Shown here one piece after another: positions 50-54,158 of a stretch of 64,000 nt of DNA. Location of the stretch: assembly GCF_988243305.1 (NCBI RefSeq), contig NZ_OZ547136.1; one strand, 5' to 3'. A program made the translations under genes and the position numbers. The notes under the pieces were generated by a model that was given only the letters and a program-made list of their open reading frames with translations, ran no database searches and was not told the origin of the DNA. Positions within the stretch are counted from its first letter, which is position 1; every line of letters starts with the position of its first letter.

Positions 50-3000
50 TTAATACAACGTATCCGGTAAACGGAATTGGCTGAACAGACCACCGGTGAA
101 CGGGTTATCTTCGGTATCCACATGCACCCGATAAACCATCGCGCCGCCGTCCACGTTAAAGCGCACGTTAAAGGTGTCACTGGTCACGTTGGTCAACTGG
201 CCCGCGCCGAACAGGCGGAACTGCGCCCACGGTCCACTGAAAGCGATACTGCGCGGTGCTCCACCGCTGGTGCCAACCAGCGTCAGCTTGCTTTCATTGC
301 CTTCACGCATGTTGTTTGGCCAGACCAGATGGGCGGTATAGTTGCGTCCCTGGCTGTAGTCCACTAACTGGCCGTCCAGGTTAAGTACGCTGCGCCGTTT
401 ATTGCCGGAAAGCGACACCGTTTCCACGGCAAATTGTGTGCCCAGCCCGTTCTGCTGGCTGAAGAAGATGTCGCGGATTTTTTGCGCGGTATCCAGTTGT
501 TGTCGGATATCTTCACGGATCAGCACTCTGCCGTCGTCGCCAAAGGTCAGATCGTTTTCAAGGAACAGTCGCAGGTTGTCCTTATAGAAATTGTCCAGAA
601 TGCCATCCGGTTTAAAGAAACGTTCAAACGCATCCAGTGAGGCATCCTGTGAGGCGCGTGGATTAAACGGATAGTTACCGGCAAGCTGTTCGTTGAAGGG
701 TTTCACTACATTGTCGCGCCAGTCCACTTCCATGTAATGAACAGCTTCCACCATCACCACGTGCCAGGCCTGATCCGCCAGCTTGCCCACCCAGCGGTTA
801 AGCGGTGCAGGCAGGGTTTTTGCCATCTGGCGGGTGGCGAAGATTGGATCGCTGCTGTTTTGATCCAGGCGTAGCTGCACTGCTTTCAGCGCCGATTTTC
901 CCGGCACTGGCGAGTTCTGGATCGCCAGCAGGTAACGGTGCAGCTCGGTCAGTTGCTGGTACACGGCCTGTAGCGTACTCGCCTTGTCCTTTTGCTCCTC
1001 CAGTGCGCTGTTTTCCGGTGCGAACTCATGCCCCAGCCGGGACAACAGGCGGTAATCCATCTCATTTATCACCGCTTCCCGCGCCTTATCGTCCAGTTTG
1101 CCGGAGAGCGTCAGCGCGTGTGTATTATCGCGCAGCGCCGTCAGCGCACGCTGGAATGGCTGATCGCCGCTGATAATCTGCTCCAGCGCGTCGGTCAGCG
1201 CCGGCATGGCCTCATAGTCACGGACGTTGAGATTATCCATTCCGGCACGCCATGTAGCGGTATAGTCACTGAGGTACTGTTCAGTGATATGGCGCTGGAT
1301 CTCTTCACGGTCGGCCTCGCTGTAGGCGACGCTTTGCGTCAGGTTCAGCACCCACGAATCCAGCGCGGTCAACTCAACGAGACCGTCGTGTTGTTTGATA
1401 AAATAGCTTTGCAGGCCATAGCGGGTGAGAAACTGCGGGATCACCAGTTTTTCATCATTACCGGCGACGAACACGTTGTCGAAGGTGGGACCAACCTGGT
1501 CGCGCAAATTCAAATCGGCGGGCAACACGCTTAATGCTTTGGTGCGTAGGGTCTGGTAGACACGCTGGTATATCGGCAGTTTGCTCAGTTCATGTTGCGC
1601 ATTAATGACCGGTTTATCATAGGGTGTCCAGCGGCTGATGGCGTCGCTGTCGCCGCTCTGGCGCTGCGCGTGCCAGTCGGTGTGTTCCAGCGCATAGTCC
1701 AGATGTGCCATCAGTTGCGCCTGAATATCACGCTGGCCGTGAAATTCATTGCTCCAGCGCCGCGCCATGTACTGTTTTACCGCCTCGTTGTTGCGCCCAC
1801 TTTTGTCTTCCATCATGCGCACTACGCGCAGCACGGCGAGTTTTTCTTCACTCTCAGGCGGGGCATTGTTCAGATCCCGGATCAGGCCGTTCATTAACGA
1901 GGGGAGATAACGCTGCTCAAGAAGCTGAATGTAGGTTTGTTCCACATATGGCCCTACGCGGACGCCCTGGTACAATCCCATATCCGCCAGAAAACCGTGA
2001 TCGCGGTAATCGCCGTAGGCGAGGGTGGCATCGCGTACCGGGTTGAGTAACGGCAGTTGCAGATTGCCGAATTCATCCTTTCCCTGCGGTGGTGGTACGT
2101 CCATAAAGGCTTTAGCCTGTGCCAGTACGTTAACGCCGGACTGCCAGTTCTGGTTGTAATAATGGTGCCAGCTTCCGACCAGCAATGCCGCCAGTGCCGC
2201 GCCACAGGCGGAAAAGGCGGTCAGCCTGCGCCGGGAGCTGTTCAGCCAGACGCTGTTTTCACCTGCAAGGTTTGGCTCGGCTAGCAGGACTTCCGGGAAG
2301 AGGCGGCGGGTGAAATACGGCGTTGTTTCCACCAGGGGCCAGGTCGCCAGCGAGCTGTTGCCCAGCCCGTACTGGCGGGCGGCGGACTGCGTGAAAATAT
2401 CATCCACCTGGCCGCGCTGTAGCGAGGATGTGAGCCAGACGCCGCGCAGCATCACATCCATATTCTCGCCGTCCAGCAATGCGGCGAGCAGTGAAGTGAC
2501 GATTTCTCCCGTTCCCTGCATCTGACGGGAGAAGCTGAACACGGCGCTGCGTAGCGCAGCACCGGTCTGCACGAGCATCAGGTCTGACAGGGCCAGGTTC
2601 ATCTGTTGTCCCCAGGTCTGCCAGAAGGTGCTCAGCTCGCTGCGCCAGTCATCGTTTTCATGAGCGCGGCGGGTAAACGTGACGCCGAGGATCGCGTCGC
2701 GGTCTTTTTTATCCAGTGAATGGAACAGCGCGGCAAAGCCGGTCAGTAGATCCAGCCGGGTCAGCACCACATAAACGGGCAACCGGCAGTGCAGGCACTG
2801 GCGAATTTCCTGAAGTTGCTGACGCAGATTTTGTACCAGTGCTTCGCGACGGAGTTTATCCGCCGTCAGCAGTTCGGGAAGATCGAGCGTCAGGATCAGA
2901 CCATTGAGCGGCTGGCGTGCGCGCGTTTCCATCAGCCAGCCCAGCCAGTGTTCGCGCAGGCGGCGGTGGAGCAGATCATCCCCGCCGGGGGAGGTCAGTA

Positions 3001-3577
3001 CGCCGTCAACATCGAAAATTACTGCCTGGTTGCCCACTCGCGGTGTGATCAGCGGATGATATTCCACACCCCGGATGCTTTCCGGCATGTAAATAATGTC
3101 AGACGGAAAGCCCTCGCGCAGCAGCGTGCTTTTGCCGCTACCCGCAGGACCAATGACCATATACCACGGCAACTGCCACAGATAACTGCGGTTATCCAGA
3201 TGGCGGCGCAGGCGCAGCAGCCAGTGATCCAAATATTGCTGCTGGTGGTGGAGTTCCACGGTCAACGGATCTTTTTCTTCCTCCCGCTGCTGTTTCTGCT
3301 GTTTTTCCAGCTTTTGCAGACGCTTCATTACCCGCCAGGTGAGCCAGACCAGAGCGATAAGCCCCCAGACGGCGGTCGCCAGCCAGCGGTTTGCCAGCGG
3401 AGCCAGCCAGTGCTGCTCATAGAGCGTCCATTTTGGACCCTGCCACCAGATCCACACCAGCAGAAAAATCCATGCCAGCGCCAGCAGCCAGGCGGCGGAT
3501 ACCTTGAATCGCGGCATCGCTGGCCTGAGCGCAGATCTCAACGAGCTGAACAGTCGGGATGTGGGAAATTTGAACAC
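50..3577 (-). CDS. tssM: Type VI secretion membrane subunit TssM (IcmF family)
   Basis: 1175-aa ORF; N-terminal hydrophobic helices (AWLLALAWIFLLVWIWW); Walker A-like GPAGSGKST; size and position typical of TssM; last gene of the minus-strand T6SS operon. Confidence 0.9.
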   Translation of the reverse strand: MFKFPTSRLFSSLRSALRPAMPRFKVSAAWLLALAWIFLLVWIWWQGPKWTLYEQHWLAPLANRWLATAVWGLIALVWLTWRVMKRLQKLEKQQKQQREEEKDPLTVELHHQQQYLDHWLLRLRRHLDNRSYLWQLPWYMVIGPAGSGKSTLLREGFPSDIIYMPESIRGVEYHPLITPRVGNQAVIFDVDGVLTSPGGDDLLHRRLREHWLGWLMETRARQPLNGLILTLDLPELLTADKLRREALVQNLRQQLQEIRQCLHCRLPVYVVLTRLDLLTGFAALFHSLDKKDRDAILGVTFTRRAHENDDWRSELSTFWQTWGQQMNLALSDLMLVQTGAALRSAVFSFSRQMQGTGEIVTSLLAALLDGENMDVMLRGVWLTSSLQRGQVDDIFTQSAARQYGLGNSSLATWPLVETTPYFTRRLFPEVLLAEPNLAGENSVWLNSSRRRLTAFSACGAALAALLVGSWHHYYNQNWQSGVNVLAQAKAFMDVPPPQGKDEFGNLQLPLLNPVRDATLAYGDYRDHGFLADMGLYQGVRVGPYVEQTYIQLLEQRYLPSLMNGLIRDLNNAPPESEEKLAVLRVVRMMEDKSGRNNEAVKQYMARRWSNEFHGQRDIQAQLMAHLDYALEHTDWHAQRQSGDSDAISRWTPYDKPVINAQHELSKLPIYQRVYQTLRTKALSVLPADLNLRDQVGPTFDNVFVAGNDEKLVIPQFLTRYGLQSYFIKQHDGLVELTALDSWVLNLTQSVAYSEADREEIQRHITEQYLSDYTATWRAGMDNLNVRDYEAMPALTDALEQIISGDQPFQRALTALRDNTHALTLSGKLDDKAREAVINEMDYRLLSRLGHEFAPENSALEEQKDKASTLQAVYQQLTELHRYLLAIQNSPVPGKSALKAVQLRLDQNSSDPIFATRQMAKTLPAPLNRWVGKLADQAWHVVMVEAVHYMEVDWRDNVVKPFNEQLAGNYPFNPRASQDASLDAFERFFKPDGILDNFYKDNLRLFLENDLTFGDDGRVLIREDIRQQLDTAQKIRDIFFSQQNGLGTQFAVETVSLSGNKRRSVLNLDGQLVDYSQGRNYTAHLVWPNNMREGNESKLTLVGTSGGAPRSIAFSGPWAQFRLFGAGQLTNVTSDTFNVRFNVDGGAMVYRVHVDTEDNPFTGGLFSQFRLPDTLY

Positions 3578-3596
3578 AGTAACTCCTTGTTATCTT

Positions 3597-5039
3597 TTAC
3601 TGTTCTGCCGTGAATTTTTGTTCCAGTGCTTTCAGCAGGGAAGGCTCCCATTCGGGTAGCATCATGTGTAAGCCTGTTTTGAAGAGCATCCGGTACTGCT
3701 GTTGTGCAAGCTGAACCATACCGGCTTCTTCCAGTAACTGCGCGCCGAAAAATTGGCGATGAAACTGGTTACGGGGATCACCTTCGGGCAGGTTTTCCAG
3801 ATACCGCAGCGCGGTTTCCAGCCCGTTCTCATCGAAGCACGCCCTGGCCGCCTGTAATTCTTCATCGGTCTGTACAGCTGCTGCGGTTTGGTTGCCTGAG
3901 CCCGATGGTGCCAGCCACTGTTTCGTCTGTTCGGACACAAACGGAGTGCGGTCGTTAAACAACAGGTTGATCAGTGCGGGCAGGCGAGCAAGAAAACTGG
4001 TAACTTCATCACGGATAGCATCCGCCACCTGTATATAACCAAGGCGCAACGCGGTCTGTGCTGAGAGGTAATGGCCGTCCAGCCAGTACGGGGCCAGCAG
4101 CAGGCTTTTTTCCACCTGCTGCCAAAGCGCCATGTCGGCATTGTTCAGTCGCGCCAGATAGTCATCCATCATATCTACAGGGAAAGCAGCCAGAGGGGTC
4201 CGGCCATCGCTTTCTGCCTGCGGGGTACTGGTGATGGTCTGCCACAGCGCATGGCGGCGCAGGCGGTAACCCAGCGGTGACTCCGGCTGACGTTCACAGA
4301 GAATGGCGGCTACCTTCAACAGGGTGTCGCGCCATGCTTTATCATCGTGGCTGTCCACGGTGACCTGCGGGATTGGAGTGGCTGCAACAGGAGGCTGAGC
4401 GGAAACTGTGTGCGGTAACATATCCGGTGCAGATCCGGTCGTGGCCTGCGGCGCAATGGCGGCGGTTCGTGCAGATGATGGCATTTCAGGCGCTACATCA
4501 CGAAACGCGCGCTGAAACAGAGTAAATAAATCGTCTGTCGCCTTAGCCAGCTCAGGCGCGTTGTGCGCCTGCCAGCACAGTGCCAGTTTTGCCAGCTCTC
4601 CCAGCAAAGCATCGCGCTGTGTTGTCACAGCATTCCCGGCAAAGTCATGAATGGCCGACTCAAAGCGTTTTATCACTTGGGTGGCGAAGCGTTTTTTGTG
4701 GGCCATGTTCTGCGGCGCGGCGCATGTCCAGTAGTGCTCTGTATATTGTGTCAGTATCCTGGAGGCCAGCAGAATATCACCGGCATGTTGCAGGGTACGC
4801 AGCAGGTGGGCCAGCAGGCGAAAATCTTTGGTTTCTGAGGCCAGAAGCATCAGGCCCCGGCGCTGAAGTTCGGGGATATCAAGCTGGCTGTGCGCCAGTG
4901 AACCGAGCTTGACGATTTCGCTGTCGATAAACTCCCAGTCTGCATTGCCATCATCAAGCGCGGCGGACAGCTTATCTTCCGGCAGGTTTTCCAGCAGGTG
5001 TGCAAGCCATATATCAGGATTACGTAAGTCCATTGCCAT
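3597..5039 (-). CDS. tssA: Type VI secretion protein TssA (ImpA family)
   Basis: ORF track gives 3597..5105; preferred start is the ATG at 5039 (MAMDLRNPDIW...), which has an AGGAGA Shine-Dalgarno 8 nt upstream on the minus strand and avoids overlap with the upstream gene; about 480 aa. Confidence 0.8.
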   Translation of the reverse strand: MAMDLRNPDIWLAHLLENLPEDKLSAALDDGNADWEFIDSEIVKLGSLAHSQLDIPELQRRGLMLLASETKDFRLLAHLLRTLQHAGDILLASRILTQYTEHYWTCAAPQNMAHKKRFATQVIKRFESAIHDFAGNAVTTQRDALLGELAKLALCWQAHNAPELAKATDDLFTLFQRAFRDVAPEMPSSARTAAIAPQATTGSAPDMLPHTVSAQPPVAATPIPQVTVDSHDDKAWRDTLLKVAAILCERQPESPLGYRLRRHALWQTITSTPQAESDGRTPLAAFPVDMMDDYLARLNNADMALWQQVEKSLLLAPYWLDGHYLSAQTALRLGYIQVADAIRDEVTSFLARLPALINLLFNDRTPFVSEQTKQWLAPSGSGNQTAAAVQTDEELQAARACFDENGLETALRYLENLPEGDPRNQFHRQFFGAQLLEEAGMVQLAQQQYRMLFKTGLHMMLPEWEPSLLKALEQKFTAEQ

Positions 5040-19038: not shown

Positions 19039-19213
19039 TACGTGTAAAAAATGAGTGTCAGTAAGGAGTTACGCTTTCATGAGGGAGATGGCGGATGCCG
19101 GAAACCCGGGCGGTAGCGTACCTGAAAATGTAAAGATGAGTGTAACGCTGCACTGGCACCCTTTGCTGCATGGTGAGAATCATTTGGTCCGTGAATAAAT
19201 CAGGGGGGTCATT

Positions 19214-21196
19214 ATGTCCTTAAAAGGTCTGCGCTTTACGCTGGAGGTTGACGGCCAGGAGCCGGACACCTTTGCAGTGGTGAATTTCAGGTTAATCCAG
19301 AACCAGTCATATCCGTTTGTGATGAGTGTGGATGTTGCCAGCGACTCTTTTATGCAGACGGCGGAGATGCTGCTGGAGAAGAAGGCGACACTGACCATCT
19401 GGCAGGGCGCAGTGGCGCAGCGTTATGTCACCGGCGTGGTGGCGGGTTTTGGCATGCAGGAGAATAACGGCTGGCAGATGCGTTATCACCTGCGTATTGA
19501 GCCGCCGTTATGGCGGTGCGGGCTGCGGCAGAACTTCCGTATCTTCCAGCAGCAGGATATCCGGACGATATCGGCCACGTTACTGAACGAGAACGGCGTC
19601 ACGGAGTGGACGCCGCTGTTTTATGAGGACCATCCGGCGCGGGAGTTCTGTGTCCAGTACGGGGAGTCGGACCTGGCGTTTCTGTCCCGGCTGTGGGCGG
19701 AGGAGGGAATTTTCTTCTTTGAGCGGTTTGCGGCGGACAGTCCGGAGCAGAAGCTGACGCTGTGCGACGATGTGGCGGGGCTGTCACAGGCGGGAGAGCT
19801 TCCGTTTAACCCGGACACATCGACAGGAGCGGAGACGGAGTGTGTCAGTATGTTCCGTTATGAGGCGCATGTCCGCCCGTCGTCGGTGCAGAGCCAGGAT
19901 TACACGTTTAAGGTGCCGGACTGGCCGGGGATGTATGAGCAGCAGGGTGAGAACCTGAACGGACAGCTGGCGCAGTATGAGATATTTGATTATCCGGGAA
20001 GGTTCAAGGACGAGCAGCACGGCAAGGATTTCACGCTGTACCAGATGGGCAGCCTGCGCAGTGATGCGGAAAAGGCCACAGGGCAGAGTAATTCACCGAA
20101 GCTGTGGCCGGGAACGCAGTTTACGCTGACGGGGCATCCGCAGAAGATGCTGAACCGTGAATGGCAGGTGGTACAGAGCATACTGTCAGGAAGCCAGCCG
20201 CAGGCGCTGCACGGCAGCCAGGGGAGAGGAACCACGCTGGGAAATCAGTTAGAGGTGATACCGGCAGACCGGACGTGGCGTCCACGGCTGCAAAGCAAAC
20301 CGAAGGTGGACGGGCCACAGAGCGCCATTGTCACCGGGCCTGCGGGAGAGGAAATCTTCTGCGACGAACATGGCCGGGTACGGGTGAAGTTCCACTGGGA
20401 CCGTTATCACGGGATGACGGAGGCGAGTTCATGCTGGGTGCGGGTATCGCAGGCGTGGGCGGGGCCGGGTTTCGGCAATCTGGCGATACCGCGGGTGGGT
20501 CAGGAGGTGATTGTTGATTTCCTGAACGGCGACCCGGACCAGCCGATAATCATGGGACGGACATACCATGAGGACAACCGTTCGCCGGGGAGTCTGCCGG
20601 GGACGAAGACGCAGATGACGATACGGTCGAAGACCTATAAAGGAAGCGGATTTAACGAACTGCGCTTTGAGGACGCCACAGATAAGGAACAGGTCTATAT
20701 TCACGCGCAGAAGAACATGGATACGGAAGTGCTGAATGACCGGACGACGGACGTGAAGCATGACCACACGGAAACCATTGGTAACGACCAGAAGATAACG
20801 GTGGGGTTGGGCCAGACGGTGAATGTGGGGAGCAAAAAGGAAGGTGGTCATGACCAGAAAGTGACGGTAGCGAACGATCAGCATCTCACGATAAAAAATG
20901 ACCGGCACAAGGTTGTAAATAACAACCAGACAAGCAAGGTGACGGGAACTGATACCGAAGAAGTCGTCAAAAAACAGAGTATTAAAATAGGTGATAATTA
21001 CGAACTGAAAGTTGAGCATGGTACAAAAATCATATCTGGGGACAGTATTGAGCTAATTTGTGGGCAGGGAGAGAGCGGGACTTGTTCCATAAAACTGGAG
21101 AAAACAGGAAAGATAATAATACGGGGGACGGAGTTTCTATTTGAGGCTACCGGTCCTGTAGATATTAAAGGAAAAGATATTCATCTGAACGGATAG
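19214..21196 (+). CDS. vgrG: T6SS spike protein VgrG (TssI), no C-terminal effector extension
   Basis: 660 aa; gp27/gp5-like organisation ending in beta-helix repeats; GGGGGG-type ribosome-binding site upstream. Confidence 0.9.
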   Translation: MSLKGLRFTLEVDGQEPDTFAVVNFRLIQNQSYPFVMSVDVASDSFMQTAEMLLEKKATLTIWQGAVAQRYVTGVVAGFGMQENNGWQMRYHLRIEPPLWRCGLRQNFRIFQQQDIRTISATLLNENGVTEWTPLFYEDHPAREFCVQYGESDLAFLSRLWAEEGIFFFERFAADSPEQKLTLCDDVAGLSQAGELPFNPDTSTGAETECVSMFRYEAHVRPSSVQSQDYTFKVPDWPGMYEQQGENLNGQLAQYEIFDYPGRFKDEQHGKDFTLYQMGSLRSDAEKATGQSNSPKLWPGTQFTLTGHPQKMLNREWQVVQSILSGSQPQALHGSQGRGTTLGNQLEVIPADRTWRPRLQSKPKVDGPQSAIVTGPAGEEIFCDEHGRVRVKFHWDRYHGMTEASSCWVRVSQAWAGPGFGNLAIPRVGQEVIVDFLNGDPDQPIIMGRTYHEDNRSPGSLPGTKTQMTIRSKTYKGSGFNELRFEDATDKEQVYIHAQKNMDTEVLNDRTTDVKHDHTETIGNDQKITVGLGQTVNVGSKKEGGHDQKVTVANDQHLTIKNDRHKVVNNNQTSKVTGTDTEEVVKKQSIKIGDNYELKVEHGTKIISGDSIELICGQGESGTCSIKLEKTGKIIIRGTEFLFEATGPVDIKGKDIHLNG

Positions 21197-21302
21197 TGCA
21201 GGATATAAAACATGGTGATTGTATTTGCTTTATACGCCTGTGAATCACCATTTGTGATTGTTTAAATTAATCATAGCATGACTTATTCAGGAATCAATAA
21301 GC

Positions 21303-22349
21303 ATGATAGAAATGAAAAATAACACACCATTTCCTTTGTTGTCATTTGAAAAATATGGTCGTTATGGTCTTTTGTTTGATGTTATTGCTATTAAAATGTC
21401 ATTGCGAATTAAAAATGGATTTTATGCTGATCTTGCTGAGTTTCAAAAAGAATTGTCCATGTCTGATGAATACTATGGGGAGTCTGAAACAAGTAGTCTA
21501 AAATCTGAAACAGACTTAGTTCTTTGTAAAAGAAATACAGATATTCACGTGACAGGTAGTGCTCATGCCCCTCCAGGGGATAAGTCTAAGTGGAAGGCTT
21601 GTGTGAGGGTTAATAGTTTTTCTAAAGAACTGAGTTTATCTGGTGTCCGCTACTTACAATATGAGCGAAATCGTTGGCAGATGAGCTTACCAGATAAAAT
21701 TATTAATGTTCCTCTACGCTATGAGCTTGCTTACGGTGGTATTTGGCAACCAGATGGTATGGAGAAATTGGTTTTTTCAGCAAACCCTGTAGGTTGTGGA
21801 TATTATCCTGATATTTCTCAACTTAATACAAGTTGTCAATATAAACTCCCACAAATAACCAGCTCTGCTTTGTCAGAAAACGCTACCATTTTTAATGGGG
21901 AATCTGACTTTTTTCAAGGTGTTGGCCCTGTATCTCGATGGTGGAAAAGTCGCCTCCAGTATGCAGGAACCTACAATGAAGTATGGCGTGAAAAGCGCTA
22001 TCCCTATTTGCCGGATGATTTTGATGAGCGGTTCTACAATAGTGCTCATCCGGATATGATATACACGGGGTTTCTCTCTGGCGATGAAAACATCTCTCTT
22101 GAAGGTTTTTTTAAATTTGAACAGGTTGTTAAGACAAAATTGCCAGGTATACGACCTGTACTTATATTAAAAACCAAGCATAATACATCACATATGTTCT
22201 TACCTGTTGCGGATACAATGGTTATCGATTTAAGTCGACAGGAAATATACCTTACCTGGAGATTAACAATACCTGATTTTTTTGGAATGAAAGAAGGAGT
22301 GCTGAGTTGTATTATTCCTGAATGTATAGGGAAAAAATATTATGGGTAA
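21303..22349 (+). CDS. T6SS adaptor-like protein (DUF2169-type suspected from context and size)
   Basis: 348-aa AT-rich ORF immediately downstream of vgrG; 8-nt overlap with the following PAAR-like gene; the family call rests on genomic context, not on a motif I can verify. Confidence 0.45.
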   Translation: MIEMKNNTPFPLLSFEKYGRYGLLFDVIAIKMSLRIKNGFYADLAEFQKELSMSDEYYGESETSSLKSETDLVLCKRNTDIHVTGSAHAPPGDKSKWKACVRVNSFSKELSLSGVRYLQYERNRWQMSLPDKIINVPLRYELAYGGIWQPDGMEKLVFSANPVGCGYYPDISQLNTSCQYKLPQITSSALSENATIFNGESDFFQGVGPVSRWWKSRLQYAGTYNEVWREKRYPYLPDDFDERFYNSAHPDMIYTGFLSGDENISLEGFFKFEQVVKTKLPGIRPVLILKTKHNTSHMFLPVADTMVIDLSRQEIYLTWRLTIPDFFGMKEGVLSCIIPECIGKKYYG

Positions 22350-23382
22350 CTATCATATCGGGGATGGTGAATGTAGATTTAGAGTCGTGTGTTCTTCACC
22401 AGATGTATGTGAAGTAGGAGGTTACAAGGTTCCTTTTGACAGTTACCAGACTTTAGATAGTGAAAGACAGTACAGTTCAACGGTATGGGCGCGTGGATGC
22501 AGAGCTTTAAATGTTGGTTCAGTGATTGCTGGAACTCAAAGTAATGCCGGTAAAGGTGTCATATCCGGTACATCTCAAGGAACGGGTGACTGTGTTATTT
22601 TAACGGGAAGTCCGACTGTAACAATAGAAGGGAAACCTGTTGCTTATCATGGTTCAGTTGTTGGGATTAATAACCATAACTGCCTTGGTAAATTGTATAC
22701 CAAAATAAAATCACCAATGATTTCTGTCATTGATAAAACTTTTAGTTATGAAAGGACTGCTGAAGTAATACACGATTTACTGCTTCTGAAGGATCTCCTT
22801 TCTGTTGGGAATATTTTGGGCGGAGATATTTCACCTGAGGTTAAAAATGATTTATTTCAAATAAAAGATCCTGACCAATCATGGGGGGAGTTTTTTTCAA
22901 TAAAGAATATCAGAGAATCTCTCAGGAATGGTATTGAAGGAGATAAATCTCAGATCAGAGAATGGTTTGGAGAGAACACACTTACTCAAATGGGCAATGG
23001 AGCAATCACCACTTTACATGGTGTGGCGGATTTAGCCTTAGTTACATTCGATGCTCTGTTAGATACGGCAACGGCAACGGTTGCTTGCCCGATAGGCGAA
23101 GATGGGTTATGTGAACAGGCAAATATAAATTTAAATGAAAAAGAACAGGCTTTATTTAATATTAGTAATTCATTGATAAATGGGCAAGCATGGGATGCAC
23201 TTAAAAAAATGATAATGGATACAAATAATGGTGATCAGATTGCTCTGGAGCATTTTGCCAGCTTTTTATGGGGCTTTATGATACCCGCAAAAATACCAGA
23301 AGAAAATATCTCTGGGAAAGTATTTGTAGAGCCAGTAGTTTTAGAAGGTGGTGCTGGTGGCAATTGGACAGTATTTGATTAG
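22342..23382 (+). CDS. PAAR-like (DUF4150-type) T6SS spike-tip protein with C-terminal extension
   Basis: N-terminus CRFRVVCSSPDVCEVGGYKVPFDSY...GDCVILTGSPTVTIEGKPVAYHGSVV resembles PAAR-like DUF4150 domains; 346 aa; ends at a TAG that is in frame with the next ORF. Confidence 0.65.
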   Translation: MGNYHIGDGECRFRVVCSSPDVCEVGGYKVPFDSYQTLDSERQYSSTVWARGCRALNVGSVIAGTQSNAGKGVISGTSQGTGDCVILTGSPTVTIEGKPVAYHGSVVGINNHNCLGKLYTKIKSPMISVIDKTFSYERTAEVIHDLLLLKDLLSVGNILGGDISPEVKNDLFQIKDPDQSWGEFFSIKNIRESLRNGIEGDKSQIREWFGENTLTQMGNGAITTLHGVADLALVTFDALLDTATATVACPIGEDGLCEQANINLNEKEQALFNISNSLINGQAWDALKKMIMDTNNGDQIALEHFASFLWGFMIPAKIPEENISGKVFVEPVVLEGGAGGNWTVFD

Positions 23383-23409
23383 GTTTTAGATTCAAATGTA
23401 ATAAAGCAA

Positions 23410-23781
23410 TTGACTTTAACAGGCTGTGGAGCGGCCTGTGGGGAAATGTTGCTTAGGGATAGGTATATTTTTGTCACGCAAAATGTAATTGGAACAGAAT
23501 TAACATCTATGACGTCGCTGGCAAACAAGCTTAATAAATTTGATGTCGGCTGGGAAGGGAATGAAGTGAGCGAATCTAGTTTATATGCCCTCAGTAATAC
23601 TGGTTCATGGGGAGCAATGATGTGGGATTCTGGAAGTAAAGTAGGGCATTGGGTACTTGTTAAGGGTGTTGATGATGCTGGGAATGTGATAATATATGAT
23701 CCATATCAAGGGAGTCGATATCTGATGACTGAACAGGAATTTAAGGAGGTATGGAATGGGCATAGTGTTTACAAACCATAA
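23410..23781 (+). CDS. Papain-fold (C39-like) cysteine peptidase domain, candidate toxin domain; possibly the 3' part of a disrupted PAAR-toxin fusion
   Basis: Candidate catalytic motifs CGAACGEM (Cys), GHWVLVKG (His), IIYDPYQG (Asp); same reading frame as 22342..23382 with only one TAG between them; ORF-track start is a TTG. Confidence 0.5.
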   Translation: MTLTGCGAACGEMLLRDRYIFVTQNVIGTELTSMTSLANKLNKFDVGWEGNEVSESSLYALSNTGSWGAMMWDSGSKVGHWVLVKGVDDAGNVIIYDPYQGSRYLMTEQEFKEVWNGHSVYKP

Positions 23782-24046
23782 TATTGATTTGTTATCGGTT
23801 GAATTTGATGAGATTACAAAAAATTGTAATTACACTTTTAGTGTAGATGGAGAGACGGCTATCTTTACTGCTAGAATATCAATAATAAGAAATATAAAGG
23901 GAATTAAATATAGCGAAGAACTTGATAAATTTATAATGTCAATAATGCCATTGCAGCCTAAAGTATCAAAAATTTTGGGAGGTGTTACTTGGGATTGTAT
24001 TTGTGGTAAGGAAGTTGGATTTCCTGTGAGATTAATTGGTAAGTGA
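23756..24046 (+). CDS. Small protein, candidate cognate immunity protein
   Basis: 96-aa ORF whose ATG overlaps the last 26 nt of the peptidase-domain ORF; no signal peptide; AT-rich. Confidence 0.35.
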   Translation: MGIVFTNHNIDLLSVEFDEITKNCNYTFSVDGETAIFTARISIIRNIKGIKYSEELDKFIMSIMPLQPKVSKILGGVTWDCICGKEVGFPVRLIGK

Positions 24047-24303
24047 AGGGTGGTGAGGTATTTCTATATTTTTTTTCGTGAAAGTCTTTAAAACTAAAAT
24101 TATCTTGTTGGGAGCCCAAGGTGAGATCATAAAACGTATTATTTTATAAATATTGTTATGCAGGGAAAGGTCAAGTAATGCTGCTTTTTTGTACTAAATA
24201 ATTCGCATTTTATGTTCAATAATTGAGGTGTTCCTTATTACCTAAAGCTGTTTTTCATTGCTTATACATGATCAAATACTCATTGCATAATTAAGGGGGC
24301 AAA

Positions 24304-25250
24304 ATGGAACTTAAAAAATTGATGGAACATATTTCTGTTATCCCCGATTACAGGCAAGCCTGGAAAGTGGAACATAAATTGCCAGATATTCTATCTGTTA
24401 ACTATTTGCGCCGTTATTTCTGGTGCATAAGGCTGGGAAGATATAGAGGATTTGGGGAAACACATCTCGATTTTTTGAAGTGATATGGTGATTTTGAAAA
24501 TGGTATTCCTGTTCACGATATCATTGCCAGAGTTGTATCCTGTATCAGTCCTGCAAAATTTTACGAGTGCTTTATTAACTGGATGCGTGACTGTCATTCT
24601 TCAGATGATAAAGACATCATCGCAATTGATGGAAAAACGCTCCGGCACTCTTATGATAAAAGTCGTCAAAAGGGAGCAATTTATGTCATTAAAATCCGTC
24701 TTCATATTGTTTGCATGTCTCTGATGAATTTATTGATTTTACGTTTGAATGGAAAGGGCTGAAGAAATTATGCATGGCAGTCTCATTTCGCTCAATAATA
24801 GCAGAACAAAAGAAAAATCCCGAAATGACGGTCAGATATTATAGCATTTCTGCTGATTTAACCGCAGAGAAGTTCGCCACAGCGAACCGAAATCACTGGC
24901 AAGTGGAGAATAAATTGCACTGGCATCTGGACGTGGTAATGAATAAAGACGACTTCAAAATAAGAAGAGGAAATGCAGCAGAATTATTTTCAGGGATACG
25001 GAAGATCGCTATTAATATTTTAACGAAAGATAAGATAATCAAGGCAGGGGCAAGATGTAAGATGTGAAAAGCAGCTGCGGACAGAGACTACCTCGCGTCA
25101 GTCCTTGCGGGGGCGGGCTTTCGTAATCTTGTTCTGCAAGGGATGATAAAAAGTGCAACTTTATTCCACGCAGCTATTTAGACAGCGTACAGTAAACAAA
25201 CGAAAGTTGTTATTTCAATGGTCAGGGCAAGAGCATGAAGTGTTTACTAC
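24304..25250 (+). mobile_element. Degenerate ISAs1-family (H-repeat) element with disrupted transposase
   Basis: N-terminus [26 protein letters not shown]... and C-terminal fragment ...[27 protein letters not shown]...[17 protein letters not shown]... match the ISAs1/H-repeat transposase from memory; frameshifts and an internal deletion are evident; right boundary approximate. Confidence 0.7.
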
Positions 25251-25295
25251 ACACTATGCTCTTGTCCTGGAGTCAGGTCTTGTCTGGAGGGATAA

Positions 25296-25799
25296 ATGGT
25301 AGATATTGTCGAGGCCGATAAAACGGATATTTATTTCATTCAGGAGAGTGTTTATGGCAAAATCGGGTTGCCAGCTTTGGGTAATACAATAGGACCATCC
25401 GCACAGCAAGTTGTTAAAAAGGTATTCGCTGTCGTTAAAGAACGAGATAAGACACATGCAAAACAGAGATTATTGTTGGAATATAATGGTAACAAACTCT
25501 GGATGAATGCTATTGATGGCAGTGAAGCTATCCTACCAACAGAATTTTCTAAGCGGTACGAACTTTCATTATTCAATACTACTAATTTTGGAGAAGATCC
25601 TTTTCCTGATGTTAATTTATATAATAATATGAAATCAAGTTTTTTTGTAAGGTTTGGTGGAACATCCCATCCCGAGGCTTGGGCTATTTATAATGCAAGT
25701 ACGAAAGAGGTTAAATATATAGAAACTGCAAGAGAAATTGATAAAATATTCAGTGATTTTAACTTGAGTGGTACATTGCCAATTCACATTGGTCAATGA
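25296..25799 (+). CDS. Hypothetical protein (cassette gene 1, unknown function)
   Basis: 167-aa ORF with GGAGGG ribosome-binding site 5-6 nt upstream of the ATG; no signal peptide; AT-rich; flanked by ISAs1 remnants. Confidence 0.4.
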   Translation: MVDIVEADKTDIYFIQESVYGKIGLPALGNTIGPSAQQVVKKVFAVVKERDKTHAKQRLLLEYNGNKLWMNAIDGSEAILPTEFSKRYELSLFNTTNFGEDPFPDVNLYNNMKSSFFVRFGGTSHPEAWAIYNASTKEVKYIETAREIDKIFSDFNLSGTLPIHIGQ

Positions 25800-25864
25800 T
25801 TTTTAAATTGTGTGATTAAATAATTGAACATTAATGATGATTTATAGCATCATTATTCTATAAC

Positions 25865-26377
25865 ATGAATAAACGGATTGAATGTGTTATGTTAAAAATG
25901 AGTTTATACGTAATAATATTGTTATTTTCCTTTCAGATTAGTGCAGCCATTACTAGCAAGGAAAGTGAGGTTGTTTCACCATTATTAATGGATGTTAATT
26001 CTTCACTAACAATGGAAAATATATCTGAATTATCCACATCATCGGAACCATCGCAACAGGGGGTATTTCCTGTAATATGTACTCGACTTCATCCTGGCTC
26101 CGTAATGAAACGCCAGTTATTAACCGGCTGGGGGCCTGTTTTTATAATTGGTGATGATCCTTTTTCTCTGCGCTGGATGAGTGAACATCTGGAGATCCTT
26201 AAATCGCTAAATGCCCTTGGTTTGGTTGTTAATGTTGAATCAGTAGAACGAATGGAGGTATTACAGCAGCGGGCTGATGGGTTATTGTTATTGCCAGTTA
26301 TCTGCGATAATTTCGTGCAAACTCTGCAATTAAATGCTTATCCGGTATTAATCACAGAGATGGAAATATCACAATGA
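25865..26377 (+). CDS. Hypothetical exported protein (cassette gene 2, unknown function)
   Basis: 170-aa ORF; signal-peptide-like segment MSLYVIILLFSFQISAAI; true start may be an internal ATG at 25889 or 25898. Confidence 0.4.
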   Translation: MNKRIECVMLKMSLYVIILLFSFQISAAITSKESEVVSPLLMDVNSSLTMENISELSTSSEPSQQGVFPVICTRLHPGSVMKRQLLTGWGPVFIIGDDPFSLRWMSEHLEILKSLNALGLVVNVESVERMEVLQQRADGLLLLPVICDNFVQTLQLNAYPVLITEMEISQ

Positions 26378-26409
26378 TTAATAACATAATTACTGCAAAT
26401 AATATCGTA

Positions 26410-26612
26410 ATTTTGAAAATGGTAATCCTGTTCACGACACCATAATTAGAGTTATGTCTTGTATCCGTTCAGTATAATTTCACGAATGCTTTATTAACTG
26501 GATGCGAGATTGCCATTCATCAAATGATAAAGACGTCATCGCAATTGATGGAAAAGCGCTTCCACACTCCTATGATAAAAGTGGTCGCAGGAGAGCGGGC
26601 TTTCGTAGTCAT
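26410..26612 (+). mobile_element. Second, shorter ISAs1 (H-repeat) transposase remnant
   Basis: About 180 bp at roughly 85% identity to 24491-24672 (encodes ...FENGNPVHDT...[29 protein letters not shown]...), joined directly to H-repeat 3'-end-like sequence (GGGCTTTCGTA). Confidence 0.6.
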
Positions 26613-26648
26613 ACCCCGACTCTCCCCAGCCCTAAACACAACCCCCAC

Positions 26649-27419
26649 TCACCACAACCTAAACTCATCCGCATCCCGCCATGCCGGAAACTTTTCTCTA
26701 TACTCCCGCAACGCCATCATCGACAGCTCCGCATCAATGCGCGTTGCCTGATGCGCGTCGGCAGTAGCGATAATCTCGCCTTGCGGATTAATCACCCGGC
26801 TGTCACCACGATAATGGCAGCCGTTGCCATCGCTGCCGACGCGATTGCATCCCGCCACATACGCCTGATTCTCAATCGCGCGGGCTGTCAGCAATGCCTG
26901 CCAGTGCAGAGAGCGCGGAGCAGGCCAGTTGGCGACGTACAGGGCGAGGTCATAATCGTTGAGATTGCGCGACCACACCGGAAAACGTAAGTCGTAGCAC
27001 ACCAGCGGCAAAATACGCCAGCCGCGCCATTCCACAATCACTCGCGCATTGCCCGCTTTATAATGTAGATGCTCATCTGCCATGCGGAACAGATGACGCT
27101 TATCATAAAAATGTACCGTGCCGCCCGGCTCAACCAGCAAAAAGCGGTTAACCGAACCAGACTCCGTTTGTAATGCAACACTGCCTGCAATCAGCGCATT
27201 GCACTGCTGCGCTTTGGCTGTCATCCAGTTCACTACGTCATCTTGTGCTAGCGACGAAGCTGCCGCTTCCATGGCAAAGCCGCTGGTAAACATCTCCGGT
27301 AGAACGATCACATCGCGTCCGGTAATACCTTCCAGTTGACGATCAAAATGACGCAGGTTGGCAGGACCATCCATCCACACCAGTGGTTGCTGCAAAAGCG
27401 TAATCTTCAAACCAGGCAC
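26649..27419 (-). CDS. yafV: Omega-amidase (nitrilase-family C-N hydrolase) YafV
   Basis: Protein matches E. coli YafV as recalled; ORF track start 27428; probable start 9 nt downstream. Confidence 0.85.
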
Positions 27420-39129: not shown

Positions 39130-39684
39130 ATGGGCAAATATATTCGTCCCTTATCCGATGCGGTATTTACCATCGCATCTGATGACCTGTGGATCGAGAG
39201 TTTAGCGATTCAACAATTACACACCACGGCAAATTTACCCAACATGCAGCGCGTAGTAGGGATGCCAGATTTACACCCCGGACGCGGCTACCCGATTGGC
39301 GCAGCGTTATTCTCTGTTGGTCGTTTTTACCCGGCAAGACGTCGCGGTAACGGTGCTGGAAACAGAAACGGGCCGCTACTCTGACACGCTGCGTTCGGCG
39401 CTGATTTCTCTGGATGGCGATAACGCATGGGCATTAAGCGAAAGTTGGTGCGGCACTATTCAGTGGATTTGTCCGAGTCCGTATCGGCCTCATCATGGGC
39501 GCAAAAACTTGTTTCTGGGCATGCTAACAAGCGGCTGGCGCGATTGCTGATTGCCTGGAAGCTGGAACAACAGCAACAGGAAAATAGCGCGGTGCTGAAA
39601 TCGCGGCGGCGAATGTTCCATCACCAGATTGAACGTGGCAACCCGAGACGGACATTTACAGGGATGGCTTTTATCGAAGGATAA
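39130..39684 (+). pseudogene. ykfJ'/prfH' remnant: RtcB N-terminal fragment followed by fragmented release-factor-H homologue
   Basis: Three short overlapping ORFs in different frames: RtcB-like N-terminus (...[25 protein letters not shown]) and PrfH-like pieces (...[48 protein letters not shown]). Confidence 0.5.
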
Positions 39685-47576: not shown

Positions 47577-47652
47577 GCCGATATAGCTCAGTTGGTAGAG
47601 CAGCGCATTCGTAATGCGAAGGTCGTAGGTTCGACTCCTATTATCGGCACCA
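47577..47652 (+). tRNA. thrW: tRNA-Thr (anticodon CGU)
   Basis: 76-nt sequence GCCGATATAGCTCAGTTGGTAGAGCAGCGCATTCGTAATGCGAAGGTCGTAGGTTCGACTCCTATTATCGGCACCA with D-loop, CGT anticodon in ATTCGTAAT loop, T-loop GGTTCGACTCC and encoded CCA. Confidence 0.9.
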
Positions 47653-47665
47653 TTAAATCAATAAG

Positions 47666-47830
47666 TTACACATAATTAGTACCTTCCTTTTTTTTTGACT
47701 GGGACAAATTTGGGACCGATGGGTTCAGGACTGAGTCTATTTGCCGTGCGTGTTCGGTAAGGTGATTAGGCGCGAGGTGAGCATATCGACGAACCATTTC
47801 GATAGACTCCCAGCCTCCCATTTCTGAAAA
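47666..47830 (-). pseudogene. 3'-terminal remnant of a tyrosine-recombinase (phage/island integrase) gene
   Basis: Only about 55 C-terminal codons with integrase-like ...[28 protein letters not shown]...; stop is 14 nt from the thrW 3' end; upstream boundary approximate. Confidence 0.65.
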
Positions 47831-47836
47831 TGCAAG

Positions 47837-48388
47837 TTGGATGTCACAGACCGACAGTCCATGGCAGATTTCGTGCAAGCAGCGCTGGATAGCTGGGGGC
47901 GAGTTGATGTTCTTATCAATAATGCGGGCGTTATGCCGCTTTCACCGCTTGCAGCAGGAAAACAAGATGAATGGGAACTCACTATTGACGTGAATATCAA
48001 AGGCGTACTTTGGGGAATTGGCGCTGTACTTCCGGTGATGGAAGCACAGGGTTCCGGTCAGATAATCAATCTTGGTTCTATTGGTGCCCTTTCTGTTGTG
48101 CCCACAGGCGCAGTCTATTGTGCATCAAAATTTGCAGTACGGGCTATTTCGGATGGCTTACGGCAGGAAAGCTCGAAAATCCGTGTGACCTGCGTAAATC
48201 CTGGGGTTGTAGAAAGTGAACTGGCTTCAACCATTACCCATGTGGAAACCATGAAGTCAATGGACGCCTACCGTTCTGTTGCACTTCAACCCGCGGATAT
48301 TGCCCGTGCTGTAAGGCATATTATTGAGTCTCCCGAAAGCGTTGATACAACCGAAATTACCATCAGACCTACTGCATCTGCAAACTGA
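47837..48388 (+). pseudogene. 5'-truncated short-chain dehydrogenase/reductase (SDR) gene
   Basis: Homology starts within the SDR fold (...DVLINNAGV...; catalytic YCASK) but the N-terminal Rossmann TGxxxGIG segment is absent; overlaps the integrase remnant at a probable deletion junction. Confidence 0.6.
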
Positions 48389-48603
48389 AGAATAACTTTT
48401 ATATTCACGTTTTATTAAATAGGTCGGAAGGAAAATTTATATCCACTGTTTTGAATAGCAAGATGCATTATATTATGCATTGCTCACTCCGAAGGAGATG
48501 AAGGTTTAATTACAGTAAGATTATTTTCACAGGGAGTAAACATGACTCATATTTAATGCCTTTGTATATAAAACTCATCCTCTCAATTGTCAGGAGAATT
48601 AGC

Positions 48604-48834
48604 GTGAATACTATCTGTTCTTTAATTGTTGTTGTTACACTGTCTTTATTATCATTCAGTAGCGTCGCCAAAACGATTACTGCCGTCGGTTCAACCATCG
48701 ACAGCACTGAAAAAGAAATTTCTTTACAGGCAGCAAAACAAGGAAAATCATATAAAATTCTGGGCGCGTTTTTTAAGAACAGAGTTTATATGATAGCAAA
48801 GTTAATACCAGTCAGTAAAAATGATGCTTCGTAA
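48604..48834 (+). CDS. Small exported protein, DUF1471 (YdgH/BhsA/McbA)-like
   Basis: GTG at 48604 with AGGAGA 6 nt upstream; signal-peptide-like N-terminus followed by ...ITAVGSTIDSTEKEISLQAAKQGKSYKILGA...; about 76 aa; family call tentative. Confidence 0.45.
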   Translation: MNTICSLIVVVTLSLLSFSSVAKTITAVGSTIDSTEKEISLQAAKQGKSYKILGAFFKNRVYMIAKLIPVSKNDAS

Positions 48835-49535
48835 GGCTCATGGTCTAATTTTTAAGACATGATCAAGAAGCATGTCTATTGATTCAAAATTGTCATTATT
48901 ATGGCAATGGAATGCCCGACAAATGACGCTATACCATCCTTCTGTACCAGTCGTCCTGCTAATCCCACCGATGCTTCGGTCTGGAGTGGTAAATTAATAT
49001 TGGACACAGTTTTATTTTCTCTCTTTTTCGAGGGGGGGATATCAACAGGAAGAATACATCCCTAAGCGGTTAATGCTGGCGTAATCAATAGACCAACATT
49101 AATCACGGATGATTACCAATCAGACTGAAATGGTTAAATCGTCGAATTCATATTTAATACGTTTTCTTTCGCCGCTGAACAACTTGAAAAGGATACATAT
49201 TTTAAATATCAGTGAAGTGAACAGTTTATTGCCATTATTAATAGAGATGGAGGAATAAATACGCGTATTCGACTATTGCAACAAAAACAACGATGATGAT
49301 CAGTTTTCATAATGAAGTAACCTGACAGATATAAAAATGTTGATTGAGGCTAAATGCCCGGATGAAGGTTGTCGAGGGAGCCAGGTGGTTTTTTCTTTTG
49401 GGTGATCTCCATTGCTGGATAGTCCCCTTGTACAGATAAGCCTGCTCTTTCTCGCTCAAAGCAGACCCTGGAATTGAACGCAGAGGGACTACCTGACACA
49501 ATTTTGCACAGTGAAGAGTCGGTCGTTATTAACGT

Positions 49536-50420
49536 TCAGATTTTCAATGTATCAATGACCATCCGCAGGGCGGGGGAGACGTTGCGATGAGGGTAATAGA
49601 GAAACAATCCCTCCATTCGCAGGCTGTAACGCTGCAACACCCTGATAAGCTTACCGTGTTCTAAATCATCCGCGACCAGTTCAACAGGAACATAGGCCAA
49701 TCCGAGGCCCAGCCGGGCGGCTTCTGCTTCCATATAGCTGTCGGATAGGGCCCATTGCCCTTCAGGGCGATGAGTGATTTTTTTATCATCCTGATTGAGT
49801 TCCCACTGGTATACGCTGCCGTCGGCAAACTGATAGGCGATACAGGGATGCGCCTTTAAATCCGCCGGGGTTTGCGGAAAACCATAGCGACGAAAATGTT
49901 CCGGAGTCCCCACAATTGCCATCTCCATATCGGGCGTGATGCGTACCGCGACCATACCCTGGCCGACTTCAGGCCCCAGGCGGACACCTGCATCGAATCT
50001 TTCCTCGATGATATCGACGAACCGGCTCTCATTTATCAGTTCAAGCCGGATATCAGGATATCTCTGTTTAAATACCGCCAGCTTTGGCAGCAGGCATTTA
50101 TCAATCGCGTGCTGGCTGGCATTGATACGCACCGTGCCGGAGGGCGTCTCTCGATAGTGCGCCAGCGTGGCAAGCCCAAGATCTAACATTTCAAATCCAG
50201 ATGCCGTCTTCTGGTAGAGCTGCTCGCCTGCTTGTGTCAGCGACAGTTTACGCGTGGTGCGCACTAGCAGCTGGACGCCCAGCCTTTCTTCAAGCTCGCG
50301 AACAGAACGGCTGACTCCTGACTGAGCAAGACCCAGCCGCTGAGCCGCTGCGGTAAAGCTGCCTTCCCGCACCACCTGCATAAACAGGTACAGCTCGTTG
50401 TAGTTCTCCCTTTTCGCCAT
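49536..50420 (-). CDS. LysR-family transcriptional regulator
   Basis: 294 aa; N-terminal helix-turn-helix FTAAAQRLGLAQSGVSRSVRELEERLGVQLL; divergent from the hydrolase gene. Confidence 0.8.
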   Translation of the reverse strand: MAKRENYNELYLFMQVVREGSFTAAAQRLGLAQSGVSRSVRELEERLGVQLLVRTTRKLSLTQAGEQLYQKTASGFEMLDLGLATLAHYRETPSGTVRINASQHAIDKCLLPKLAVFKQRYPDIRLELINESRFVDIIEERFDAGVRLGPEVGQGMVAVRITPDMEMAIVGTPEHFRRYGFPQTPADLKAHPCIAYQFADGSVYQWELNQDDKKITHRPEGQWALSDSYMEAEAARLGLGLAYVPVELVADDLEHGKLIRVLQRYSLRMEGLFLYYPHRNVSPALRMVIDTLKI

Positions 50421-50606
50421 TGAAACATCCCCCCTTCATGCCGGCAATCTCCGCATTAATTTATAACAATATGGTATTAATCTTAGCATTAATCGCCCCC
50501 TAATCAGCACTAATTCTGCTCACTATAATGACCCCATCAAAGTAAAGCACCGCAGCGTTGTCCGTCGGAAACCTGTATCTCTCTGTTGTTTTTTATGGGG
50601 ATTTTT

Positions 50607-51743
50607 ATGAAAGCCTTCACCCGCACGCTAAAAACCGCGATGCCGACCATGCTGCTTTTCGCATCATTAAGTGGAGTCACGACAATGAGTTATGCTGATT
50701 CAACCAATCCTAATGCCCCTGTGTCCATGACAGATAAATGGGATAAAACGTTCGCCGAGAGCCAGAAAGTCGATCACCGTAAAGTCTCGTTCCCGAACCG
50801 ATATGGCATCACCTTAGTGGGCGATCTTTACCTGCCTAAAGACCGTGGCGATCGCAAGCTGGCGGCGATTGCGGTCAGTGGGCCATTTGGCGCGGTGAAA
50901 GAGCAATCCAGCGGCTTGTATGCGCAGACGCTGGCGGAACGAGGGTTTGTTACCCTGGCGTTCGATCCTTCTTACACCGGGGAAAGCGGCGGCTATCCGC
51001 GAAACGTCGCCTCACCGGATATCAACACTGAAGATTTCAGCGCGGCGGTGGATTTCTTAGGGCTGCAAAAAGAGGTAGATCGCAACCGTATCGGGCTGCT
51101 CGGTATTTGTGGCTGGGGCGGCATGGCGCTGAACGACGTGGCGATGGATACCCGCGTTAAAGCGGTAGCTACCAGCGTGATGTATGACATGAGCCGGGCG
51201 ATGGGTCATGGTGTGGGGGATGGCAAAGACCGTTATTCTACCGCCGACCGTCGTGCCGTTCTGCAATATCTGAATGAACAGCGCTGGCAGGATGCGCAGA
51301 GCGGAACGTTCGCTCACGGTGGTCATGATATTAATGTCGATAGCAACGGCAAGGTCAGTGCGGGCGAGCGCATTCTGCCAGAAACGCTGCCGGCAAATCC
51401 TCATCCGGTACTGAAAGAGTTCTTTGACTACTATCGCATGCCGCGCGGCTTCCACGAACGTTCCGTTAACTCTACCGGGGCGTGGACGGCAACGATGCCG
51501 CTGTCATTTATGAATATGCCGCTGTTGAGCTACGCCAGTGAAATCACCATTCCGACGCTGATTGTGACCGGTGAGAAAGCACATTCACGCTATTTTGCTG
51601 AAGATGCTTACAAGGCGGTTGGCAGTAAAGACAAAGAGTTGGTGGTGGTACCAGGGGCAAATCACGTGGACCTGTACGATAACGTGGCCGGAAAAATACC
51701 TTTCGCGAAGTTCGAACAATTTTTCCAGACCAAACTGAAATAA
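50607..51743 (+). CDS. Secreted alpha/beta hydrolase (dienelactone-hydrolase-like)
   Basis: ORF track 50586..51743; start at ATG 50607 (MKAFTRTLK...) preceded by GGGGA; signal peptide; nucleophile-elbow-like GICGWGG. Confidence 0.65.
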   Translation: MKAFTRTLKTAMPTMLLFASLSGVTTMSYADSTNPNAPVSMTDKWDKTFAESQKVDHRKVSFPNRYGITLVGDLYLPKDRGDRKLAAIAVSGPFGAVKEQSSGLYAQTLAERGFVTLAFDPSYTGESGGYPRNVASPDINTEDFSAAVDFLGLQKEVDRNRIGLLGICGWGGMALNDVAMDTRVKAVATSVMYDMSRAMGHGVGDGKDRYSTADRRAVLQYLNEQRWQDAQSGTFAHGGHDINVDSNGKVSAGERILPETLPANPHPVLKEFFDYYRMPRGFHERSVNSTGAWTATMPLSFMNMPLLSYASEITIPTLIVTGEKAHSRYFAEDAYKAVGSKDKELVVVPGANHVDLYDNVAGKIPFAKFEQFFQTKLK

Positions 51744-51818
51744 AACCTCTCCTGAATTGATGCAAAGCCACCGGCCATAGGCTGGTGGCTTTTATCCTGA
51801 TCTTTGTGAAATTTCACT

Positions 51819-53012: not shown

Positions 53013-53055
53013 TCCGGCGAGGGCGCGCGTTGCTGAATAAGTTACACAAGGCGAT

Positions 53056-54149: not shown

Positions 54150-54158
54150 TGTTCCTCC

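Follow-up and report, generated by a model that had tools for sequence, protein, structure and literature searches.

An intact cpi1 immunity gene behind an amber-interrupted cpe1 effector gene in Escherichia coli, a probable orphan immunity gene

Results and discussion

A vgrG-DUF2169-cpe1-cpi1 module at the end of a T6SS cluster

The 64,000-nucleotide stretch analyzed here (RefSeq assembly GCF_988243305.1, contig NZ_OZ547136.1; 'the window') is part of an E. coli chromosome. Read from left to right, it carries a T6SS cluster (tssA...tssB/C/E/F, hcp) and then, in order, vgrG, a DUF2169 gene, cpe1, cpi1, ISAs1 remnants, two small genes, yafV, ivy and fadE (Table 1). The G+C content of DUF2169-cpe1-cpi1 is 31-39%, versus 53-56% for vgrG, tssC and fadE; the cpi1 segment itself has 30.6%, against 52% across the whole window. 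This low G+C is consistent with a horizontally exchanged effector cassette, and the AT-rich vgrG-DUF2169-cpe1-cpi1 module at the end of the T6SS cluster would thus represent a horizontal acquisition.

Table 1. Features of the cpe1-cpi1 locus, in window coordinates.
Feature	Coordinates	Strand	Description
vgrG (TssI)	19214..21196	+	Spike gene, head of the vgrG-DUF2169-cpe1-cpi1 module; ORF list and RefSeq annotation
DUF2169 gene	21303..22349	+	T6SS accessory/adaptor gene upstream of cpe1; RefSeq annotation of identical region
cpe1, 5' part	22342..23382	+	Codons 1-346 and TAG; PAAR-like/DUF4150 domain, entry domain, linker
Premature amber codon of cpe1	23380..23382	+	GAG to TAG, E347*; T at 23380 versus G in ATCC 11775 and S88
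cpe1, 3' part	23383..23781	+	Papain-like/C39 protease domain Cpe1tox, residues 348-479; Cys362 at 23425-23427
cpe1 codon 408	23563..23565	+	Glu here (A408E, 23564 C>A), Ala in ATCC 11775; published exosite residue
Shine-Dalgarno sequence of cpi1	23743..23749	+	AAGGAGG, 6 nt before ATG; raw sequence
Overlap of cpe1 3' end and cpi1 5' end	23756..23781	+	26 nt; upstream TAA at 23779-23781
cpi1	23756..24046	+	Cysteine protease immunity protein Cpi1, 96 aa, ATG start; RefSeq WP_000513317.1

The 96-amino-acid protein is Cpi1

An earlier note, made from the DNA letters alone, had described a candidate immunity ORF of 96 amino acids that overlaps the stop of a peptidase-domain ORF by 26 nt in another frame. 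The ORF list and the raw sequence both bear out this geometry: the two ORF starts differ in frame (23410 mod 3 = 1; 23756 mod 3 = 2), and the encoded protein starts MGIVFTNHNIDLLSVEFDEITKNCNYTF, exactly as that note had quoted it. A PDB sequence search returned identity at 96 of 96 residues to Cpi1, chain C of entry 9L5U (E=3.6e-62), the published neutralizer of Cpe1 (PMC12136450), so the candidate proves to be an immunity protein. All four residues of the binding interface probed by mutation, I47, M61, M64 and K72, are found in the window protein. In newer RefSeq annotation, WP_000513317.1 is already named 'cpi1: cysteine protease immunity protein Cpi1' beside 'cpe1' in E. coli S88. Cpi1 is therefore a known protein, published, crystallized and named in current annotation; its gene, structure and mechanism have been characterized before, and what remains of value here is annotation and population biology.

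Scans of the Cpi1 sequence gave no Pfam-A match even at E<=10 and no NCBIfam match at E<=0.01, and a distant PDB match was to the CdiI immunity protein in 8SSM chain C (E=6e-09, residues 15-94). The earlier note could not assign the sequence to a known immunity family; no HMM of Pfam or NCBIfam covers it, but Cpi1 is a named family with a relative in StbI/CdiI of Citrobacter rodentium.

The start of cpi1 is built into the end of cpe1. Its Shine-Dalgarno sequence is embedded in the cpe1 codons Lys-Glu-Val, and its ATG spans the codons for Asn and Gly in WNGHSVYKP*, the conserved motif at the toxin C-terminus. With this strong Shine-Dalgarno sequence inside the end of cpe1, Cpi1 could initiate on its own, to judge by sequence features; loss of upstream translation might lower cpi1 expression. 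A promoter and terminator scan of 21200-24400 gave 21 promoter-like matches (12.3 +/- 3.6 in shuffles, a modest excess), identified no promoter specific to cpi1 and found no terminator-like site 3' of it. An Rfam scan of 21000-26500 on both strands had no match.

The N-terminus of Cpi1, MGIVFTNHNIDLLSVEFDE, has neither a basic n-region nor a long hydrophobic core when inspected by eye, in agreement with the earlier proposal that the protein lacks a signal peptide. The accompanying prediction of a cytoplasmic toxin was also correct, since Cpe1 cleaves GyrB and ParE (PMC12136450).

Published biology of Cpe1-Cpi1 and its relatives

The Cpe1-Cpi1 pair has been studied in E. coli ATCC 11775 (Song et al., PLoS Biol 2025, PMC12136450). 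Cpe1, a PAAR-linked T6SS effector, ends in a papain-like cysteine protease domain (catalytic residue C362), which cleaves GyrB and ParE in the cytoplasm and thereby blocks DNA relaxation, chromosome segregation and division (PMC12136450). Co-expression of Cpi1 rescues the toxicity of Cpe1tox, and binding of the two proteins is backed by pull-down, a competition assay and a crystal structure (PMC12136450). In the 1.87 A complex, Cpi1 leaves the active site uncovered and sits, with an interface of 1,050 A2, on a neighboring hydrophobic concave exosite (L387, M390, A408, M426, W428 and V434) that doubles as the substrate recognition site (PMC12136450). Cpi1 displaces the ParE ATPase domain, its Kd of 8.58 nM versus 343 nM being about 40-fold tighter, and a quadruple mutant at I47, M61, M64 and K72 loses both binding and protection (PMC12136450). 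The window protein would accordingly be expected to bind with nanomolar affinity at the exosite beside the Cpe1 catalytic pocket, and to compete with substrate docking without plugging the active site.

The same module occurs in ATCC 11775, where cpi1 follows cpe1 in a vgrG-DUF2169-cpe1-cpi1 arrangement next to yafV-ivy-fadE. The Cpi1 protein (96/96) and the cpi1 DNA are identical to those of the window. Unlike the window, in which cpe1 carries E347* and A408E, ATCC 11775 has cpe1 as one intact 479-codon gene.

A more remote counterpart is StbI/CdiI of Citrobacter rodentium DBS100 (PDB 8SSM chain C), a homologous small immunity protein (E=6e-09), although the match is weak (39 bits over 80 aligned residues; comparably divergent family members are 25-48% identical). 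According to a 2026 bioRxiv preprint, StbD-CT, a CDI toxin, has the targets of Cpe1, and its immunity protein StbI works through an exosite as Cpi1 does, blocking GyrB docking (10.64898/2026.05.07.723447). Like Cpi1, StbI neutralizes its toxin, a C39 homolog of Cpe1 with GyrB and ParE as substrates, through exosite binding and leaves the active site open (10.64898/2026.05.07.723447). The delivery routes differ: the partner toxin of StbI is carried by a CdiA-like two-partner secretion protein, whereas Cpe1 is carried by the T6SS through PAAR. StbD-CT undergoes autoprocessing behind a diglycine, located in its linker to a YajC-dependent cytoplasm-entry domain, with cleavage at G157-G158|A159, 25 residues before the catalytic Cys, and Cpe1 has both features (10.64898/2026.05.07.723447). 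The authors of the StbD study also drew a likeness to the colicin DNase immunity proteins Im7 and Im9, which are high-affinity exosite inhibitors that leave the catalytic center free (10.64898/2026.05.07.723447); in this literature comparison, Im7/Im9 differ from Cpi1 in their unrelated fold and sequence, their nuclease targets and their delivery route.

cpe1 is one gene split by an amber codon

The upstream peptidase-domain ORF (23410..23781, TTG start) had been taken as a gene of its own. Instead, it is the 3' fragment of an interrupted cpe1: the PAAR-like ORF 22342..23382 shares its frame, and only the TAG breaks the frame between them. When codons are numbered from 22342, the stop falls at codon 347, and Cys362, L387, M390, M426, W428 and V434 all fall at their published positions. 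Thus no intact effector ORF joins the PAAR/entry part to the protease domain in the window.

Beyond the stop, the 132 codons of Cpe1tox encode a domain identical at 131 of 132 residues to PDB 9L5U chain A (E=9.3e-88) and clearly homologous (E about 1e-44) to the toxin chains in 8SSM, 8SSK and 12AJ, and Pfam Peptidase_C39 matches it at 2.7e-07. Cys362 and the GHW His motif are found in the window, and the Cys-His-Asp triad and C39 fold are supported by this near-identity to the crystallized Cpe1tox. On the other side of the stop, residues 189-346 (22906-23379) match the YajC-dependent cytoplasm-entry domain of StbD-CT (PDB 8SSK_A, E=2.4e-32). The diglycine is conserved in the linker motif GGAGGNW, in agreement with the StbD study (10.64898/2026.05.07.723447). 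From the StbD register, in which cleavage lies 25 residues ahead of the catalytic Cys, we predict that Cpe1 is autoprocessed at G337|A338 (G336-G337|A338), and E347* falls 10 residues after this site.

The cpe1-cpi1 segment of the window differs from ATCC 11775 and S88 at 10 positions, all of which are in cpe1 and none in cpi1. Glu is kept at position 347 in all diverged homologs inspected (...NWNVIDEI..., ...SWNVLDEV...), so E347* is the derived state. We surveyed the alleles with a 41-nt probe centered on each SNP, a design in which the other allele cannot seed a megablast hit. Among 5,426 complete E. coli genomes, the E347* allele is present in two, Z1323HEC0462 and NY1601, and the A408E allele is confined to the same two. 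A sequencing artifact at 23380 was considered and rejected, given that the allele is present in two independent complete genomes. We likewise rejected A408E as a functionally decisive second lesion, because homologs vary at this residue (N, S, F) and it was not among the residues mutated in PMC12136450.

In both genomes, the RefSeq/PGAP annotation has three proteins here, one 'PAAR-like' (346 aa), one 'C39 domain' (111 aa) and one hypothetical (cpi1), with no pseudogene label. The start chosen for the 111-aa protein is the ATG equivalent to 23446, which lies 3' of Cys362. We propose a single entry for cpe1 here, as a split gene or pseudogene, in place of the two separate genes.

This strain probably does not produce an active toxin domain, nor deliver one. 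Given E347*, full-length Cpe1 would not be made, and the nonsense codon would remove the whole protease domain from the deliverable protein. The 346-aa PAAR/entry fragment would be at most a spike tip, which may still cap VgrG. Any reinitiated protease fragment would be without the PAAR and entry domains needed for delivery and, if restarted at ATG 23446, without Cys362 as well. The coupling of toxin and immunity genes proposed in the earlier note is therefore right as to the partners, cpi1 being the partner of Cpe1, and wrong as to their present state: with cpe1 broken by a nonsense codon, the coupling in the window is a relic, not a working pair.

A diverged Cpi1 family that accompanies the protease domain

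A word-indexed homolog search with Cpi1 recovered only near-identical E. coli sequences and fragments; the wider family emerged when HMMER was run exhaustively against 1.84 billion representative proteins (E<=0.001). This gave 33 clusters of Cpi1 relatives, most of them 90-101 aa long and 25-48% identical to the query, with W79 and P90 as the best conserved positions in the alignment.

We inspected the genomic context of four diverged members (P0012, P0014, P0018 and P0028). Three of these (P0014, P0018 and P0028; 29-41% identical to Cpi1) are each encoded directly behind an ORF ending in a Cpe1tox-like domain, 61-69% identical to that of the window, just as Cpi1 is encoded directly 3' of Cpe1tox. 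Across metagenomic and Logan contigs (loci L009-L015), in which the immunity proteins are 29-41% identical to Cpi1, the two coding sequences again overlap by exactly 26 nt. This overlap is conserved because the Asn and Gly codons of the conserved toxin C-terminal motif WNG(H/G)xVYK(P/Q/H)* supply the start codon of the immunity gene.

The fourth member, P0012 (47% identical), lies in a CdiA orphan region (L006/L007, 2586-3288; L007 is GCA_008330085.1, CP040392.1) downstream of a CdiA of about 3,800 aa. It sits behind the remnants of a split Cpe1-like toxin, comprising a 94-aa N-terminal piece and a 30-aa C-terminal remnant, the latter with the same 26-nt overlap. The check suggested in the earlier note, whether homologs co-occur with the peptidase domain, thus came out in its favor: all four sampled diverged homologs stand behind a Cpe1-like C39 domain or its remnants. 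Cpi1 goes with the peptidase domain and can outlast it.

Orphan immunity or decaying remnant

We are confident that the 96-aa ORF is cpi1, the cytoplasmic immunity gene of the T6SS effector Cpe1, and that it is now a probable orphan immunity gene. Only the rare cpe1 allele with E347* (and A408E) is new at this locus, and it is this allele that makes cpi1 a probable orphan.

The cpe1-cpi1 module has matches in 335 complete E. coli genomes and cpi1 in 332, about 6% of the 5,426. In those 332 genomes cpi1 is always full-length, single-copy and chromosomal, and 331 copies are at least 99% identical. In about 35 of the 335, under 80% of the cpe1-cpi1 query is covered. We inspected two such cases. 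One is GN02050 (L018, locus 1605-4291), in which an IS3 element is inserted near window-equivalent 22552, at about cpe1 codon 71, and an identical cpi1 is kept. The other is found in O145 strains (L017, RM10425-C1, locus 2051-4291), where only the final ~500 nt of cpe1 are left, fused to a truncated vgrG and followed by an identical cpi1 (WP_000513317.1); this remnant locus occupies a different chromosomal site (ansP-yncG...pptA). An intact immunity gene beside a truncated or missing toxin, the arrangement known from orphan immunity genes of T6SS and CDI systems, is therefore seen in the window, in O145, in GN02050 and in the CdiA loci L006/L007. The window departs from that concept in that its toxin coding sequence is still almost complete, and a protective benefit here is putative.

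On balance, we favor the view that cpi1 most likely serves this strain at present as orphan immunity against Cpe1 delivered by other E. coli. Since Cpe1-armed neighbors are common, at about 6% of complete E. coli genomes, retention of cpi1 has a plausible benefit. A broader proposal, that selection keeps cpi1 as an 'immunity-only' defense after repeated independent loss of cpe1 in E. coli, we put forward more tentatively, as possible rather than probable. If true, the locus would be a naturally occurring instance of orphan T6SS immunity, directed against a toxin that cleaves topoisomerases and circulates in about 6% of E. coli. The combination of a broken cpe1 with an intact cpi1 offers a small, testable case of orphan-immunity retention in this species.

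Three considerations could speak against an orphan role. The nonsense mutation could be recent and neutral, in which case the intactness of cpi1 is little informative, the gene being near-invariant in almost all strains. Termination 376 nt upstream could also reduce cpi1 expression, through lost translational coupling or Rho polarity. Moreover, the scan of 21200-24400 pointed to no promoter belonging to cpi1 itself. The first of these leads to the main alternative, in which cpi1 is a non-selected leftover of a decaying module and is intact only because too little time has passed since the nonsense hit. The rarity of E347* and its confinement to near-identical sequences fit such a history, and cpi1 DNA is so uniform across the species that its identity here is no proof of selection. 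Nonetheless, we consider it unlikely, as at least three independent kinds of cpe1 lesion are all accompanied by full-length, identical cpi1, and CdiA loci retain a distant orphan homolog behind the fragments of a broken toxin. The frequency of the locus also argues against it: most of the carriers are potential Cpe1-armed attackers, against which immunity is plausibly beneficial.

Orphan immunity also has to be weighed against a pair that still works, in which the protease domain would arise through read-through of the amber codon or from a restart at TTG 23410 that retains Cys362, and Cpi1 would give self- or kin-protection. The frame 3' of the TAG is intact and encodes a domain 131/132 identical to active Cpe1tox, and the in-frame TTG follows only 28 nt after the stop. 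Against this, no Shine-Dalgarno-like sequence precedes TTG 23410, PGAP picks the ATG at 23446, past the catalytic Cys, and a reinitiated fragment, being without the PAAR and entry domains, would therefore not be loadable on VgrG. Wild-type E. coli normally reads through amber codons at a very low level, and the allele carries A408E in the substrate/immunity exosite besides. We accordingly judge a working pair to be very improbable. Still more speculative is the idea that the split at E347*, 10 residues past the autoprocessing diglycine, gives a two-piece effector that is still useful.

Finally, the notion that 23756..24046 is a chance, untranslated open frame, for which its small size and the lack of a Pfam or NCBIfam match might be cited, has a negligible probability given that the identical protein has been purified and crystallized (PDB 9L5U), that the ORF has a consensus Shine-Dalgarno sequence and belongs to a family conserved over diverged loci, and that an ORF as long as cpi1 is unlikely by chance (when a 601-nt stretch was shuffled 2000 times by mononucleotide with its composition kept, and all six frames were read, 10 replicates, 0.5%, had an ATG ORF of 96 aa or longer).

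Other rearrangements in the window

Z1323HEC0462, the closest complete genome, has an extra vgrG-DUF4123-effector-PAAR module of about 4.1 kb between hcp and the cpe1-linked vgrG, which is absent from the window. The window vgrG matches both vgrG copies of that genome over 19212-20719, which suggests that recombination between vgrG paralogs led to deletion or insertion of the ~4.1-kb module.

Downstream of cpi1 (24304-26650), ISAs1-family transposase remnants at 24304-25067 and about 26502-26650 flank two small ORFs. The first (25296-25799) encodes a hypothetical protein of 167 aa. The second (25865-26377) encodes 170 aa with a hydrophobic N-terminal segment and is called an 'integrating conjugative element protein' in RefSeq.

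Farther along, at about 39336-39519, the window lacks roughly 1 kb of the ATCC 11775 sequence, which there spans parts of prfH and of an rtcB-family RNA ligase gene. At 47577-58241, the tRNA-Thr(CGT) gene (47577-47652) is followed by about 10.6 kb without a counterpart in the fetched ATCC 11775 region. ATCC 11775 has the vat autotransporter island at this tRNA; judged by ORF sizes only (229, 318, 732 and 318 aa, minus strand), the content of the window at this position looks like K-12-type genes.
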